From an uncultured Nitrospiraceae bacterium (GTDB lineage Bacteria > Nitrospirota > Nitrospiria > Nitrospirales > Nitrospiraceae), in contig CAWJWJ010000001.1 of the NCBI GenBank assembly GCA_963846575.1, positions 512,001 to 576,000 of the forward strand: DNA of 64,000 nucleotides, in the 5' to 3' direction. Positions 33,001 through 39,000 of the stretch are shown one piece after another; the stretch's first letter is position 1, and every line of letters starts with the position of its first letter. A program made the position numbers.

Positions 33001-36000
33001 AACACCGGTCCCGTGGCGGCGAGATGCGTGCGGAAAGCCAGCGAGGTCGTGGGACCCTCCCGCCCGAAGACGTCTCACTTTTCCAAACGTAGGAGGAGCC
33101 AAAATATCTATACTCACCGAAAAGGAACACGTTCCTCTGAACATAGGCCCGCACACCGGCCAAAAACTGATACGCAAAGGCCCACGTCGCGCCCGCCTTC
33201 GATCCGTCCCCAGTTGAACCCTTCATGTTGGTTCCCCGAAACGTCTCGCTTGCAAACCCGTTGCCTCCGATTGAGATGTCCTTATCGACAGGGAAGGTGC
33301 CGAGCAAATAGGGCGCGAAATATGCCTCGGTTTTCCTTGGCTGCTTTGCGGCCGGATCGGTCGATACTTGTTCCTCCGCCGCAGCCGCTTGCAGGTCTGA
33401 AAATCCACCGCCCCACAGCACTCCCATCACGATTACCCGCCACAGGGTTTCATGGAGACTCCGTGTTGAATTTGACTAGAGAGACCTGGCTGTCCCGATC
33501 AAACCCAGCAAATTCGCACTCTCTTCAAGGGCTGTCTTGGCAATTCGCGTAGGAGTGTGGGGGAGGCAATACTTAGCACTCTGGCCTAAGTATGTACCCT
33601 GTTTACCATGCATTGGTAGGCCTCCGTTCCCGCCCTCATTACAATAGTCGTTGGGCTCTGGCCTGCCCTATAAAGAAACCCTTCGGCTTTTCCCGAAGTG
33701 GAATAGCCAGGCGTTCGTCACTCGCACTAGCCATTTAACCTATGGGAGGAAATATGAGGTCTTTGGGGAAGTCCATCACTATGGTCGCAGCAGTACTGGT
33801 TATCTCCACGATGTCGTCCGGCTGCTCCGTGCTGATGGCCGCCAACCGCACGAGCTATCGGGGAGATGTGAATGTCATTAAGGAGGGAACCTCGCGCCAA
33901 GAGATTATCGCCGAACTGGGTGAGCCAGATTCATTCTACAAGCCGGAAATGGGCGGCTTTGATGACCGGTATCAGCTGGATCCGGAAGCCCATAGAACCT
34001 GGGTCAAGGTTGGTACGGTCCTTCTTCACCTAGGCGCAGATATAATGACCGGATTCCTCTGGGAATTGGCCGGAACCCCCTATGAACTGGCAGTTCGCGA
34101 CAGAGTCGTTATTTATCACCTCGCCTATAACTCCGATGGTAAACTCACTGCGGTCGAAAAAATTAAACCGTAATGTGCGCAAGCAAATCGATTGTTGTGG
34201 GGCTTGGCTGAAAGAGTCCTTTCAGCCGAGCATTCCCTATAGCTCCCTGACTTCTCACATCCCTCCCACAGAGTGAAGCCGTCTCCCGACAGTTGAGCAT
34301 CCTTGAGGGTTGCTGTTACCGGCATCCTGTTATTTACATGGGCTTACACTGAGACGTCGTCAATCATCAGGCAGGCAGCCGTGCAAGCTGATTAGAAAAA
34401 CGCCTGCACGGTGAACAAGACGTCATTGTCGTGATCGCGGTGATTGTATTCCATCCGCAAGGCCCAGTTTTGAGCAACCGTGTAACGTTGTGCCACCGAC
34501 CATCTGAAGTCATCCGACGTTTCGCCCAACGCATACCGTAGATAGGTGGTCGAGGCCAGCATGCGCCACCGTTCGGTAAGATCGGCATAGAACCCTGCGG
34601 ATGCGCCGCCACCGATGCGGTGCCGTTCAGCATAGGCCCGGCTGTAATTTCCCTCCACCTCGGCAAATACAAAATACACTTCCCGGCGGAGCACATGCGT
34701 TTCCGTCGCGGCGCCGATGCCGCCGTTGATGTGCCAGTTACTGCACAATTGACACTGTCGATGGGTGATCGTCTGCATACCGAGGTTGATCTTCCACGAC
34801 GGGGCCTGAAAGAGGCGATCGACGGGGGACAATGACAACACGTTGGCCAACGTGGCCCGCTCCACCCGCGTCTGTTCCGCCCGGTTATAGTGACGCAGAC
34901 TGATCGACCCGAGCTCGATTTGTGCATTTGGGGTATAGCCCGGCTCCGGATCGAGGAGATCGTGATAGCCCGCGCGCATCGTGACTTCTTCGAAAGTATC
35001 GTTATTCCTCCAACCACCTCCCAGGCTCGCACGGGAAGTCTTGTGGCCGAGTTCCGGCTGCAAGGCAAAAGGACGGATCGGCAGATCTTCGGACGGAATC
35101 CGCAACAGGCTCCGGGCCTTCAGGATCTCCCGGTTGCGTTCTCGTGACACGGCGGCCAGGTCCTCATCACCCTCTCCCGTATACCGCACATAGTCGGAAG
35201 CCACGTCCAGGACCAGAGCCTGCCGGGGAAGCGGCAGAGCACGAACCTCTTCCGACTGACTCAGCGAGGCATCTCGTACCAGCCGATTCACCAACACATC
35301 TTCCGACTGGGATACATATTCACGTTTACGACGGATGAGCGTCACTCGAGAGGGGCGAAAGGCGATATCCGTGACCAATCCCGGCTGGGCCGCGAGCAAA
35401 CGAACCGTGTCGGCGGGCACGGTCCAGAACAGAAAACGGTCGGTCAGGCGCAGTGAGGGATCCGCATATTCCAACAACGACAGGAGATGGTAGGAACAAT
35501 TTTCCTTGAAGAAATAATAGTCGAATGCGGCGTTCCCGAGTTCCCAGGCATGCATGAGCAGGCGGCGGATCTGCCGGCCGTCAAAGTTCAGGCGATACTC
35601 CCAGATGTCGCGATTCTCGATATCCCGGTACTCCTGCACCTTCAGGTAGTAGGGAATGGTCGAAAAGTAGCCCCGGTAGCCGCCGAATATGCCGCGAAAC
35701 GCAAAATCCAGGTTGGATCCAGGCGGCACATCGGCCGCGAAATTGATCGTGTAGGCCAGCAGGCGGGTTTGGGCCGTCTGGCCCCGTTGGTCGATCCGAA
35801 GAAAGGTATGTCCGAACATCGAAGCCGGGTTGTTCATGAACGCGGAAGGGAAAATGAGGGAAATCGATTGGGCCTCGAATTCGCCAAACCATTGCTCGAA
35901 CCGTTCACATTTCAGCGGCGCGAGACGCGCGTCGTCGAAGGCCAGCTGCTCCCTCAGCCACGCATACCGTGCAACAAAGGCACATTGCGCCGGCTGTTTG

Positions 36001-39000
36001 GAACGACCGACGAGGTCGGACGAAAAGAACTGTTTCAGTGTGGCGGCCAATTCCGCGGCGGGGTCGGTCTTCCCCACAGCCGACATGAAGAAGCCGGGCT
36101 CGTCCTGCTCACTGGTGTAGCCACCGAATAGATTGGCACGATAGTGCAGCAGGAGGTGCCACTCACGCTGGTCAGCCAATCGACTGTCGTTGGCCAGCCG
36201 GATCAGTTGCTGCAGATAGGGCTCAGCGGAATCTTCGGCCCAGGCGGGAGTCGTGAGAACCAGAGCGCCCAGCAGGGCACAGAAGATCGGCGCGATTGCC
36301 CGCAGAGAAAAAAACAGGGCCCCGATCAACGACCGGAGCCCTATCACGAGTGCGAACAAAAATTTAACGGCTGACGGCTTGTGCAAGGACAGGACTCTTA
36401 CCTACCGCATCGTTCAAAGCCTTCACGAGTGCGACCGACGAGGCTTCGCCCGCTTCGACCAGGGCCGTATACCGCTCTTGGGTCAGCGCGAAGAAGGCAC
36501 TGTGCTGTTCGGCAGGAATCCCCATAAGTGTGGCCAACGAGGCCAGATGCTCGCCCTTCCCCTGTGCCATCTCCTGGGACAAATTGTCAAAGTTCAAATG
36601 CGCGAACATATTCGTTTTCTGAGCCGCCATCACCTGCCCGTCATTCGTGCAACCCGAGGTTCCGGAGCTGATGCCGAATGTGCCACTGCCGAAGCTTCCG
36701 TTAGTGGTAGCCATCATGACCTGCGGCGCAATATTCTTCTGATTTTTATAATCCGCCCAAGCCAACTTCCCTAGACCACAGCCCGGCCCGGTATCAGGAT
36801 TTGCCGCCAAGGCCAATCCTGCCTGTGACACAACCGCGACGGCGCCCAGCACGACGAATAGTGTTCTCAGCATATGTCCTCCTCCTTTGAACAAGTGAAT
36901 AAGTCTTCCCGGATAGGCACTTCGGCTTCACCCTGTGAATATTATAACCAAGCGATTCCGTCATGTAGAGCAAAAAATTCCCTCACGGCGCCCCACGCGT
37001 CACTCAGCCCGGTCGGCCAATGTGATGTGCTGCGGCTCGATCGTCTCAGCATGGAACAGCAGAAGGCCGATGGCGCGCGGCAGATGAAACCGTTTTGGTC
37101 CGGCGGAACCAGGATTGAACAACAAGATACCTTCGCGCCATTCGGCCTTCGGTTGATGGGTATGCCCGTACACACAAATCAACGGCCGCGTGCGCTCCAG
37201 GAATGCGGTCCCGTCGCCGGTCATCTTTCCCTTTTCGTAGAGGCGATGATAGAGGGCGATCCGCCGGCCTGCCAGTTCGAGGAGTTGCTCCACGGGAAAG
37301 CCACTCGCTTCAAATCCATCCACGTTGCCCGACACCGCGGTGACGGGCGCAATCTGTTCAAGCTGCTCGATCACCTCTCGGCGGCCGATGTCTCCGGCAT
37401 GCAGGATATGATCGACGCCGGAAAAATGACGGACAATTGCGCGGTCGAAGCAACCATGCGTATCCGATATCACGCCGATGCGCACGTCGCACACCTCGCA
37501 CTATGTGCCGGGCTCAGCCTTGGCCAACGATTCCTGCACGCTCTTCCAGCCGAAGCTGAACGGTTCGGAACTCCGTTTGGACAAGACCGCGAGTTCCGCC
37601 TTCAATAGTTCCGCACGAGCCGCACTCATGGGATGGGTCGAAAAGAGTTCCACGCGGCCCTTGTCTTTTTCCGACAGGCGCTCAAAAAATGTGATCATGC
37701 CCTCAGGCGCGATGCGAGCTTCGGACAGGAGGCGAAGGCCGGTGAGATCCGCCTCGGTTTCCTGTGCGCGCCCGAATTTTAACGTGGCGAGATTCAATCC
37801 TAAATCCTTGGCGAGCCCGATCAAACCTTGCTGGTCCCCCACGAGGATGCTCCCCACCGCCGCCAACCCGAGCATCTTCACCATGCGCTCCAGCCCATGC
37901 CGCTGCAGCACGTGATTCAATTCATGGCTCAAGACGCCGGCCACCTCTTCCCCGCTTTCGGCCTTCTTTAACAAGCCGGTATAGACCACCACATATCCGC
38001 CCGGCAGCGCGAACGCGTTCACCACCGGGCTCTGCACCACGGAAATCTGGAACTTGTACGGATTGTCCTGGATCTTGTCGGTCAGACGATGCGTCATTTC
38101 CTGCACGGCATTGACCGCCGCCCCCTCCTTGAGGATCGTTTCCTTGGAGAGGGCATCTTGATAGACCATCTCACCGATCTGTTGCTCCCACTCGACGGGG
38201 ATTCGAGCGACTGCCCACTCGATCATGAGATCGGAGCCGAACCAGACCAGTAGGCCGAGACCGACGAGGACCCCCACGGCACTGCCCCAAAACAGGCGAT
38301 GGCTCTGCCGGGCCCGCCGAACCTGAGCGGCCGCCCGATCGAGATGCGCGGTCATGTCCGAAGGCGCCGCGCGACGAAAGGCGACGATCAGCGAAGGGTC
38401 TTTCAAATAGAGAGTCCTGGCTGAGCCATCGATGCTCCACGACAGGACCAACTGATCGTGATCCAAGCCGCCGGCTGCCACCGACAAAGCCGCAAATGCC
38501 ACGAACTCCTCGCTGACGGATGACCTTTCCAGCGAAGAGAGGCGCAGCCCATCCGGCAACAACCGGATGTGACAGGGCGCCCCGGCCGCGGGCAGGCCAT
38601 CACCGAAACAGAGTGCATTGGGAGTGAGTGTCATGAGAGTTGGGATCTCTTCGCGCGGGGCTCAACCGGGCAGCCACCCACGCCGCAGGTACAACACACC
38701 GGAGGCGTACCGTCCGGGTACGTTGTGGATTTTTTCGACCCGAGCCCAACGATGTCAGGTCTGTTGAGCGTCCGCCATTCAGTTGCTATTCGGAGACCGG
38801 GATGAACTGACGGATCCAGTTGCCAAAACTGCCGGGATTGCGGCTTTGGATGTAGACGACACCAGGACCGCGGAAGCGGCAGACCAGTCCCTCACCTGAC
38901 GTGAGACTGGCGATCCAGCCCGACGAGGCCTTCTCGATATTGTAGGTCGTCGTAGAGGTCCAGGCGACGAGATGGCTGTTGTCGACAATGTACTCTTCAT

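Follow-up and report, generated by a model that had tools for sequence, protein, structure and literature searches.

An Lnb_N enzyme with an outer-membrane beta-barrel and its DUF3015 partner proteins in a Nitrospiraceae genome: a candidate tag-directed acyltransferase

Introduction

To our knowledge, the known lipoprotein acyltransferases act at the cytoplasmic membrane. A different logic is found in C-terminal sorting systems (sortase, exosortase/PEP-CTERM, rhombosortase and type IX CTD/PorU), where each genome has one enzyme and several tagged proteins, one of them encoded adjacent to the enzyme. Among the acyl enzymes, Lnb of Bacteroides is described as a protein of about 400 aa with five transmembrane helices and the triad Asn66-His49-Cys148 (passages of bioRxiv 10.1101/2024.05.31.596883 = PMC11573676), and LnsA of Staphylococcus aureus draws its acyl group from the sn-1 chain of phosphatidylglycerol (PMC13559823).

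Here we analyze a 64,000-nt stretch (the window) of the genome of an uncultured Nitrospiraceae bacterium that encodes an Lnb_N protein, g00555, behind a small secreted DUF3015 protein, g00556. Literature searches returned no description of such a DUF3015/Lnb_N-barrel module: DUF3015 appeared as a table row and DUF2388, the corresponding pseudomonad family, in table mentions, while the passages retrieved on DUF4105 describe no architecture like that of g00555 and those from the lipocone paper hold nothing relevant to the module. We propose, with a probability of roughly 0.5, that g00555 transfers fatty acyl chains from outer-membrane phospholipid to the cores of DUF3015 client proteins, which it would recognize by a C-terminal tag.

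Results and Discussion

Organization of the locus

The coordinates of the features are collected in Table 1. The DUF3015 gene adjoins the enzyme gene in 123 of the 127 related loci with at least 800 nt of upstream sequence (four duplicate loci, L093, L100, L101 and L137, are excluded from this and from the conservation, hairpin, hydrolase, Ser/Thr and neighbor counts). A 23-nt overlap of the two genes had been reported; its arithmetic is right, but it is probably a start miscall, because a terminator-like hairpin (15 pairs at 36345-36313, with a T tail behind it) separates g00556 from g00555. An in-frame stop interrupts the enzyme frame past the DUF3015 stop in 63 of 123 related loci, and we thus reject a conserved gene overlap. 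The true start is likelier GTG at 36347, which aligns with the ATG of close relatives, or a later codon; no Shine-Dalgarno sequence was seen at either, and the mature protein begins at about 36236. Hairpins of -20 kcal/mol or stronger follow the DUF3015 gene in 112 of 123 related loci vs. 41 of 145 coding controls. Promoter-like consensus matches in the region number three, compared to 1.7 expected from shuffled sequence. The strong ribosome-binding site of g00556, the terminator and the weak start of g00555 would together yield DUF3015 protein in excess of enzyme, an excess that also fits an inhibitor and in this respect counts against acyl transfer.

Table 1. Features of the DUF3015/Lnb_N locus (positions in the window)
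Feature	Position	Strand	Basis
Alpha/beta hydrolase (Hydrolase_4), probable accessory gene, 2.7 kb downstream	30885..31646	-	Pfam, identity
g00555 as called, 664 aa from TTG	34392..36386	-	ORF
12-stranded outer-membrane beta-barrel (452-664), last residue Phe	34395..35033	-	Model, fold matches
Helical domain and linker (346-451), second half of predicted docking site (Leu422, Arg425); invariant His448	35034..35351	-	
Lnb_N permuted NlpC/P60 catalytic head: His193 (35810), Asn215 (35744), Tyr290 (35519), Cys297 (35498)	35388..35900	-	
DUF7843 N-terminal subdomain (Glu112, Cys135, Arg140, Cys160 conserved)	35946..36182	-	Pfam, conservation
Intrinsic-terminator-like hairpin with T tail, between g00556 and g00555	36303..36345	-	Hairpin search
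g00556, DUF3015 protein, 169 aa, strong Shine-Dalgarno sequence	36364..36873	-	ORF, Pfam
DUF3015 C-terminal helical domain (78-169), proposed docking tag (Phe90, Gly105, Gly107, Glu108, Leu110)	36367..36642	-	
DUF3015 core (24-77): invariant Cys32, Gly33, Gly35, Asn58, Cys75	36643..36804	-	
Sigma-70-like promoter match upstream of g00556 (TCTACA, 17 nt, TATAAT)	36941..36969	-	Consensus match only

Downstream on the same strand, the window encodes an alpha/beta hydrolase in which no signal peptide was seen. Its identity is 59-65% to the hydrolases that immediately follow the enzyme in other Nitrospirota and 29-36% to the lipobox forms of Proteobacteria. Of 104 loci with 3.5 kb or more of downstream sequence, 39 have such a hydrolase behind the enzyme and on its strand; its absence from the other 65 counts against an acyl reading. 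Among the first downstream ORFs scanned, 18 of 49 encode it. Genes for a TRL lipoprotein, a small barrel, MlaA, a metallophosphoesterase and an M48 protein recur near the enzyme in 25-40 of 142 loci; we do not count these as part of the system because all occur in records that are Nitrospira-like by title. Neither secretion-system genes nor Fap families were found among the scanned neighbors.

An Lnb_N head on an outer-membrane barrel

Our search reproduced the Pfam domains previously assigned to g00555 (DUF7843 69-147, Lnb_N 163-333 with E 9.7e-58, DUF7840 443-654), and His193 and Cys297 are indeed kept, in 141 and 142 of 142 aligned homologues, respectively. For the third triad residue, which the preliminary description could not name, alignment and motif now point to Asn215 as the probable candidate (118 of 142 homologues). 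DUF7843 lacks an HExxH motif. Toward its C-terminus, it aligns with the stretch where the DUF7844 region of a pseudomonad relative ends, but this alignment begins only at residue 133, and the idea of DUF7843 as a dead zinc peptidase stays a guess.

The structure model (pLDDT 96.2) comprises a permuted NlpC/P60 head followed by a helical domain and then by an outer-membrane barrel of 12 strands. The head matches TseH (PDB 6v98; Z 9.2, rmsd 3.9, 151 aligned) and YiiX (PDB 2if6; Z 7.5, rmsd 3.3, 136 aligned) over residues 121-300 of the mature protein, with His before Cys on a papain-like fold. The Tox-Act1 clade is alike in head fold (passages of PMC12994826); in contrast to these proteins, g00555 is a conserved single-copy envelope gene with no secretion-system genes among its scanned neighbors. 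The same passages include peptidases and lipid-targeting toxins among the permuted NlpC/P60 proteins (PMC12994826), which counts against an acyl reading.

That DUF7840 forms an outer-membrane barrel, first proposed from a sequence pattern, is now supported by the 12 modeled strands and by the best fold matches, all 12-stranded outer-membrane barrels (EstA, Z 14.2, rmsd 3.8, 189 aligned; NanC, 13.5; KdgM, 13.2; FapF, 12.0). Strand hydropathy alternates, clearly in strands 1, 2 and 7-12, and the protein has an even strand number, a C-terminal aromatic residue and, by eye, a signal peptide. The EstA match invites a comparison with autotransporters (type Va, EstA-like), in which a helix runs through the lumen and a passenger lies at the surface. 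In g00555, the linker ahead of strand 1 appears as coil in the model, and conservation sits on the periplasmic connections.

FapF was the top Foldseek hit, with the likeness of a generic barrel at 10-12% identity, and the Fap operon includes a papain-like peptidase, FapD. The top rank of FapF and the presence of FapD, together with an abundant, tandemly duplicated and unfolded subunit, would suit a Fap-like system in which the Gly/Ser/Thr/Asn-rich DUF3015 core is proteolytically processed and then exported by the barrel to form a polymer at the cell surface. We consider this improbable: FapF does no better than equal other 12-stranded barrels, and scores below some (Z 12.0 vs. 14.2), barrel-less homologues keep the same partner design, and in Competibacteraceae lipoprotein partners with short poly-Ser cores are the only neighbor.

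With Lnb, g00555 shares the Lnb_N domain, a His about 100 residues before the Cys, Asn as the probable third residue and a membrane-held periplasmic head. However, it scores 16.7 bits against the Lnb model (NF051878; equivalog cut-off 550) and has no membrane helices (peak 19-residue hydropathy of the mature protein 0.84), which rules out its being Lnb. Where Lnb has five inner-membrane helices, g00555 has the barrel and additional DUF7843 and helical domains; unlike Lnb, it has a dedicated partner family and coexists with lnt, whose presence elsewhere in the genome we confirmed as two LNT_N genes away from the locus. The low score, the lack of membrane helices, the two lnt genes and the exclusive link to a single family of partners, most often of a form that lacks a lipobox, make a general second lipoprotein N-acyltransferase or deacylase, in effect Lnb relocated to the outer membrane, very improbable, despite the unchanged triad order and the placement of a lipobox Cys1 and of Cys297 within a predicted interface (see below).

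DUF3015 proteins resemble tagged substrates

Family searches of the genome gave five DUF3015 matches, as reported before, and one Lnb_N match. Three of the five are shorter lipoproteins with lipobox-like motifs (LSGC, VAGC and LSGC, by eye), while the full two-cysteine N-terminal part occurs in only two of the five copies. In g00556, Pfam DUF3015 spans residues 24-166 behind a Sec signal peptide (1-23, by eye). Across the family, the helical domain stands behind varied N-terminal parts (a two-Cys hairpin, a lipobox with Ser/Thr repeats, or a PEGA lipoprotein), and the form with the two-Cys motif and no lipobox is the commonest (136 of 164 hits).

The core is unfolded in the monomer model (pLDDT <50 over mature residues 1-57) and rich in Ser and Thr: 33% over Gln51-Cys75 of g00556 and in the two-Cys form generally, 44% in the lipoprotein form and 36% in DUF2388, compared to 8-14% in the helical domains. 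Among two-Cys proteins, 61 of 80 have their last Ser/Thr pair exactly 18 residues ahead of the Phe; the distance is 18-19 residues in 59 of the 67 aligned DUF2388 proteins and spreads over 12-21 in the lipoprotein form; this regularity is partly built in because the count takes the last motif in a Ser/Thr-rich stretch. No PDB sequence matched DUF3015, the best fold match of the helical domain (Z 5.7) was not a clear one, and Atlas searches gave no usable match. Two long open frames with DUF3015 matches were rejected as fusions, being unbroken frames upstream of ordinary genes.

Co-occurrence and a barrel-less relative

Of 61 Nitrospirota genomes, 21 have DUF3015, and exactly these 21 have DUF7840. 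Each of them has a single barrel gene, and 14 have 2-7 DUF3015 matches. In the class of Nitrosomonas, all 34 DUF3015-positive genomes (250 scored) fall within the 50 of 251 with Lnb_N. By record titles, the module ranges over Nitrospirota, Nitrospinota, SAR324, several proteobacterial classes, Bdellovibrionota, a Desulfosarcina and a leptospire relative, and the number of 50%-identity clusters that score E up to 1e-30 exceeds 3,000.

Pseudomonads encode a barrel-less DUF7844-Lnb_N relative behind DUF2388 (TIGR02448) proteins in 80 of 80 loci. Its homology to g00555 (hhalign 98.2%) begins where DUF7843 ends, covers Lnb_N and extends into the helical domain. As in the Nitrospiraceae locus, small secreted proteins with Ser/Thr cores are encoded directly upstream, often in tandem, but the enzyme has an HExxH domain in place of the barrel and the partner has no Cys. 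DUF2388 and DUF3015 gave an hhalign probability below 6%, so that homology between them is not demonstrated. This relative has no membrane anchor, which counts against a lipid donor, as its access to lipid would be unexplained.

The DUF3015 module resembles C-terminal sorting systems in its single enzyme, multiple tagged proteins and strict co-occurrence; its tag differs in being a soluble helical domain of 90 residues, and the passengers found are small. A sortase-like protease or transpeptidase could be imagined that cuts at or after Ser/Thr-Ser/Thr-Gly, so that the helical tag is lost and the core is either set free or attached to a lipid or peptidoglycan amine. The one enzyme for many tagged proteins with its dedicated neighbor, the near-fixed motif-to-tag spacing, often with a terminal Gly, the papain-like head and the fusion of the tag to unrelated passengers all argue for it. 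Nevertheless, we regard it as unlikely: the nearest characterized relatives transfer or hydrolyze lipid acyl chains, and besides Lnb_N the pseudomonad form has an HExxH peptidase-like domain (83 of 83), an indication that in pseudomonads Lnb_N does not do the cutting. No long fusion of the helical domain, above 296 aa, was found among 258 candidates of 297-2000 aa, a point of little weight.

Predicted docking on the enzyme

An orphan lipoprotein DUF3015 copy from another contig co-folds with g00555 (ipSAE 0.80, 0.80 and 0.79; best of three controls 0.00), with contacts agreeing by at least 67% between runs and a partner pLDDT of 71-72. Of solved complexes, 116 of 157 reached the mark, and of mismatched pairs 2 of 215, counts that are only roughly valid with the alignments used here. 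The predicted interface includes all four invariant partner-family columns, at residues equivalent to those of the g00556 helical domain, and the enzyme residues Pro245, Tyr247, Leu422 and Arg425 (90-97% conserved). Docking of this copy by its helical domain would fit one enzyme serving several tagged clients. The interface also includes partner Cys1 and enzyme Cys297, although the two are not listed as a pair and their closeness may be a free-cysteine pairing artefact. Core residues 2-29 lie outside it, so the co-fold does not put the Ser/Thr motif in the active site, and the earlier g00556 co-fold did not reach the active site; both points count against acyl transfer.

Of the preliminary description of an Lnb-like outer-membrane enzyme, the barrel with its His/Cys head, the choice of DUF3015 as partner and the predicted docking of the C-terminal half against Lnb_N and the helical region that follows are supported; the orphan paralogue independently gave the same site. 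The enzyme is not Lnb, and the DUF3015 proteins, with a variable core and a constant docking domain, look more like tagged substrates than a fixed subunit.

A tight predicted contact through the folded domain rather than the core would also fit an enzyme that remodeled outer-membrane lipids, as a phospholipase A or lipid-to-lipid acyltransferase, with DUF3015 as a regulator, inhibitor or adaptor in excess. The terminator, with the partner excess it would yield, and the nearby MlaA and hydrolase genes in Nitrospira are consistent with this, as is the lipid-targeting role described for the sister clade Tox-Act1 (passages of PMC12994826). It is rather unlikely in our view, since it leaves unexplained the conserved yet unfolded Ser/Thr core, the dispersed orphan copies with differing cores and the same core-plus-domain design in DUF2388.

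A possible tag-directed acyl transfer

In the acyltransferase reading, an exported client would dock by its C-terminal helical domain on the Lnb_N and helical domains, as predicted for two paralogues, while the modeled barrel would keep the head on the periplasmic side of the outer membrane. With activation by His193 and Asn215, Cys297 would take a phospholipid fatty acyl chain as a thioester; the family (Lnb, LnsA, LRAT) and the linked hydrolase point to acyl chemistry as the best guess. The chain would pass to the flexible core, where our leading, if tentative, acceptor is a hydroxyl of the Ser/Thr motif that precedes the docking Phe by about 18 residues; an Lnb-like acyl exchange at the client N-terminal amine or cysteine is a weaker candidate. 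The acylated core could then anchor or insert in the outer membrane, and the hydrolase may strip the acyl group again or clear the lysophospholipid by-product.

The enzyme family of protein O-mycoloylation in Corynebacterium differs from that of g00555, and we know of no docking domain of the DUF3015 helical kind in that process. Under the acyltransferase reading, g00555 would work like the O-mycoloylation of PorA, PorB and PorC (see PMC5310785, PMC11066868 and PMC11927696), in that both place acyl chains on serines of small outer-membrane proteins, outside the cytoplasm; the envelope and the acyl chain differ. LnsAB and LRAT-type enzymes would share with g00555 the permuted Cys/His acyl-thioester chemistry and the phospholipid donor, and their catalytic head is likewise brought to the membrane by another part; the membrane part of LnsAB is a separate CPBP protein (PMC13559823), whereas g00555 has a fused barrel and clients with a folded docking domain.

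More speculatively, the helical tag may define a lipidation and sorting pathway that is widespread among Gram-negative envelopes and brings small proteins of various kinds to the permuted NlpC/P60 enzyme, by which their Ser/Thr cores would be O-acylated with phospholipid-derived chains independently of Lgt and Lnt; in pseudomonads, the fused zinc peptidase would also cut off the tag to give ribosomally made periplasmic lipopeptides. The acyltransferase reading is directly testable, as catalytic residues, docking residues and a candidate acceptor motif are named and a barrel-less version exists in cultured pseudomonads. If it is true, lipidation would have a further route, through an acyl enzyme that is part of an outer-membrane barrel and has tagged clients of its own, and an unstudied modification of envelope proteins would be present in many Gram-negative bacteria.

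The gene pair and its genomic setting

The enzyme encoded by g00555 and its DUF3015 partner (g00556) constitute a real, widespread and unstudied module of the cell envelope, a variation on the acyl enzymes of permuted NlpC/P60 type. Both ORFs were re-found at the positions given in a preliminary description of this DNA, and a new scan returned identical Pfam rows. The five DUF3015 copies claimed for the genome were recovered along with one Lnb_N match, as were two lnt-type genes elsewhere (gene numbers of that description were assigned to loci by order only). Lipoboxes had been attributed to three DUF3015 copies; these are shorter and carry, by eye, lipobox-like LSGC, VAGC and LSGC, and the full N-terminal part occurs in only two of the five. 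The nearest relatives are Nitrospira records (identity up to 86%). Two contigs titled Methanothrix and Patescibacteria (L064, L082) encode enzymes 68-74% identical to that of g00555 and are probably mis-binned Nitrospira DNA.

The described 23-nt overlap of the two genes is arithmetically correct but rests on a TTG start of g00555 that is probably miscalled; another candidate start, GTG at 36347, corresponds to ATG in the closest relatives, and none of the candidate starts has an evident Shine-Dalgarno sequence. Downstream of the DUF3015 stop lies a 15-pair hairpin that has a T tail. Among loci that are heavily Nitrospirota and not independent, DUF3015 lies immediately upstream of the enzyme in 123 of 127 (non-duplicate, at least 800 nt of upstream sequence), a 68-nt segment starting at its stop reaches a folding energy of -20 kcal/mol or below in 112/123 compared with 41/145 coding controls, and a stop between the genes closes the enzyme frame in 63/123. 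From sequence, we infer that the DUF3015 protein is made in excess over the enzyme.

In 18 of the 49 loci scanned (those from L044 onward with a callable ORF), the first ORF behind the enzyme encodes an alpha/beta hydrolase; of the 104 loci whose downstream sequence extends 3.5 kb or more, 39 have the hydrolase downstream. The linked hydrolase has a lipobox in Proteobacteria, and the window copy has no signal peptide. That the enzyme remodels lipids together with a regulator seems unlikely. Nearby, the ORF resembling the small barrel is probably its frameshifted paralogue, and the lipoprotein-like ORF recurs in 5 of 142 related loci.

Features of the module, its surroundings and related loci
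Feature	Position	Strand	Record
Enzyme gene g00555	34392-36386	(-)	window
DUF3015 gene g00556	36364-36873	(-)	window
MlaA, hydrolase, small barrel, TRL lipoprotein: envelope cluster recurrent in Nitrospira-like loci	29682-32820	(-)	window
Alpha/beta hydrolase, genome's best match	30885-31646		window
ORF without Pfam match, by eye like the small barrel at 31753-32430	32930-33430	(-)	window
Lipoprotein-like ORF without Pfam match, hydrophobic hairpin, convergent with g00555	33742-34173	(+)	window
1588-aa protein, long Pro/Ala/Glu/Ser-rich low-complexity middle	45414-50180	(-)	window
Orphan DUF3015 lipoprotein	C2:383990-384313		source genome (G000)
PEGA-type lipoprotein with hydrophobic hairpin	C2:2113781-2114317		source genome
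PEGA-type lipoproteins with hydrophobic hairpin near barrel enzymes without adjacent DUF3015	2897-3331; 4154-4543; 6112-6561; 43-684		L291; L292; L296; L167
Two barrel enzymes in tandem behind a single DUF3015	1767-6123		L301
Two barrel-enzyme modules with different partners	491-6561		L296; also L300
Barrel-less DUF7844 (HExxH) + Lnb_N protein preceded by one to three DUF2388 genes, pseudomonad/other gammaproteobacterial	4310-7363 (L174)		L174, L176, L177, L178-L257
103-aa secreted protein, Ser-rich core, preceding a pseudomonad-type enzyme	479-2995		L294

The enzyme: catalytic head and barrel

An AlphaFold2 model of the enzyme built with 142 aligned homologues (pLDDT 96.2, pTM 0.93) has twelve C-terminal strands, which match the barrel of EstA (Z 14.2, rmsd 3.8, 189 aligned) and further Tsx, NanC, KdgM and FapF; Fap-like export is a quite improbable function. 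The connections joining strands 2-3 and 4-5 are long, and their conservation (0.59, 0.47) exceeds that of the three loops measured on the opposite side (0.19-0.28), a pattern that would put the head in the periplasm. Fold matches of the head are TseH (Z 9.2) and YiiX (Z 7.5). Among the 142 homologues, Cys297 is kept in 142, His193 in 141 and Tyr290 in 140, and position 215 is Asn in 118 and Ser in 18. Because the predicted triad of Lnb is Asn66-His49-Cys148 (bioRxiv 10.1101/2024.05.31.596883), Asn215 is the probable third catalytic residue. Lnb itself was ruled out as the identity of the enzyme (16.7 bits, where the cut-off is 550; no membrane helix), and a general second Lnb is highly improbable.

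DUF3015 proteins and their distribution

In the DUF3015 model, mature residues 1-57 are unfolded and the remainder is confidently helical; the unfolded part includes the invariant Cys32, Asn58 and Cys75. The helical domain occurs behind three kinds of N-terminus, namely PEGA lipoproteins, a two-cysteine hairpin, and a lipobox leading into stretches rich in Ser/Thr, of which some show 11-residue repeats by eye. The lipoprotein form is the sole DUF3015 neighbour at loci of Competibacteraceae and Desulfosarcina, where the adjoining enzymes keep His and Cys.

Across 61 Nitrospirota genomes, DUF3015 and DUF7840 (the barrel) occur together in the same 21 and are both missing from the other 40; all 21 carry a single barrel gene, split in one case, and 14 have 2-7 DUF3015 matches. 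In the class that contains Nitrosomonas, 250 genomes were scored for DUF3015; the 34 positive ones all belong to the 50, out of 251, that have Lnb_N. Those 50 take in two unpublished genomes (G099, G173), which enter no other result. Three barrel enzymes without adjoining DUF3015 have instead a small PEGA-type hairpin lipoprotein at most two genes away. One such lipoprotein is a fusion with the DUF3015 helical domain, and the motif Asn-x-x-Trp-Asp-Leu-x-Thr-Thr is common to one PEGA-type lipoprotein and divergent DUF3015 cores (L297-L300). Some genomes have two barrel enzymes.

Predicted docking

We co-folded the single enzyme with the orphan DUF3015 lipoprotein, taken from its Cys, and obtained ipSAE values of 0.80, 0.80 and 0.79 (best control 0.00), with contact agreement of at least 67% and partner pLDDT of 71-72; the mark used was passed by 116/157 solved complexes and 2/215 mismatched pairs, counts that are only rough when alignments are used. 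The predicted interface (enzyme residues 162-169, 203-212, 242-255 and 390-434) is the same enzyme region previously named for g00556. It takes in all four invariant partner columns and the enzyme residues Pro245, Tyr247, Leu422 and Arg425 (90-97% conserved), and partner conservation averages 0.60 there versus 0.42 elsewhere. These models support binding of the orphan lipoprotein to the enzyme. Partner core residues 2-29 are absent from the predicted interface. Cys297 of the enzyme does lie in it, as does Cys1 of the partner; this would fit Lnb-like chemistry but may instead arise artefactually from the pairing of free cysteines.

A parallel system with DUF2388

DUF2388, a family neighbouring DUF4105, turned up in 3 of 250 genomes, each of which has a copy directly upstream of an Lnb_N gene; at all 80 further loci (pseudomonads, Azotobacter) DUF2388 genes are present, one to three per locus. 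The linked enzymes have HExxH in 83/83, align with g00555 residues 133-393 at an hhalign probability of 98.2%, and gave no DUF7840 match in the three scanned. DUF2388 proteins, which consist of a signal peptide, a core rich in Ser/Thr and a helical domain, share the core-plus-helical design of DUF3015 but have no cysteine; no homology between the two families emerged (hhalign probability under 6%). Ser+Thr make up 33% of two-Cys, 44% of lipoprotein and 36% of DUF2388 cores, and 8-14% of helical domains. The last Ser/Thr pair precedes a conserved Phe by 18 residues in 61/80 two-Cys proteins, by 18-19 in 59/67 DUF2388 proteins and by 12-21 across 22 lipoproteins, a count partly built in by how the motif was picked; its distance from Cys1 spans 30-61. 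The DUF2388 + DUF7844/Lnb_N module looks like a precursor with a peptidase/acyltransferase. The L294 protein matched neither DUF2388 nor DUF3015 profiles and is possibly a third partner family.

A possible mechanism

Sorting systems, FapD and protein thioesterases serve as comparisons for the module, and a sortase-like protease or transpeptidase is unlikely. The best reading, to which we give roughly an even chance (0.5), is tag-directed acyl transfer, in which an acyl chain from an outer-membrane phospholipid would pass to the core of a client docked by its helical tag. A Ser/Thr hydroxyl is a tentative choice of acceptor, and the N-terminal amine or cysteine a doubtful one. The proposed chemistry follows that of Lnb and of LnsA, the latter using as donor the sn-1 chain of phosphatidylglycerol (PMC13559823). 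The analysis thereby shows the anatomy of the module, its modelled fold, conservation, co-occurrence and modularity; docking is predicted, and the side on which the head lies, the expression ratio and the whole of the chemistry are inferred.

We found no description of a barrel + DUF3015 module in the literature, covered thinly for subscription papers, including passages of PMC12994826, PMC10318531, PMC13066512, PMC11963402, PMC6034422, PMC13515162, PMC12419801 and PMC13559823; DUF3015 and DUF2388 are absent from nine supplementary files of PMC12994826. Supplementary files of bioRxiv preprints and PMC10318531 may hold mentions of DUF4105 neighbours. There is a fair chance that the module represents a new pathway of tag-directed lipidation.
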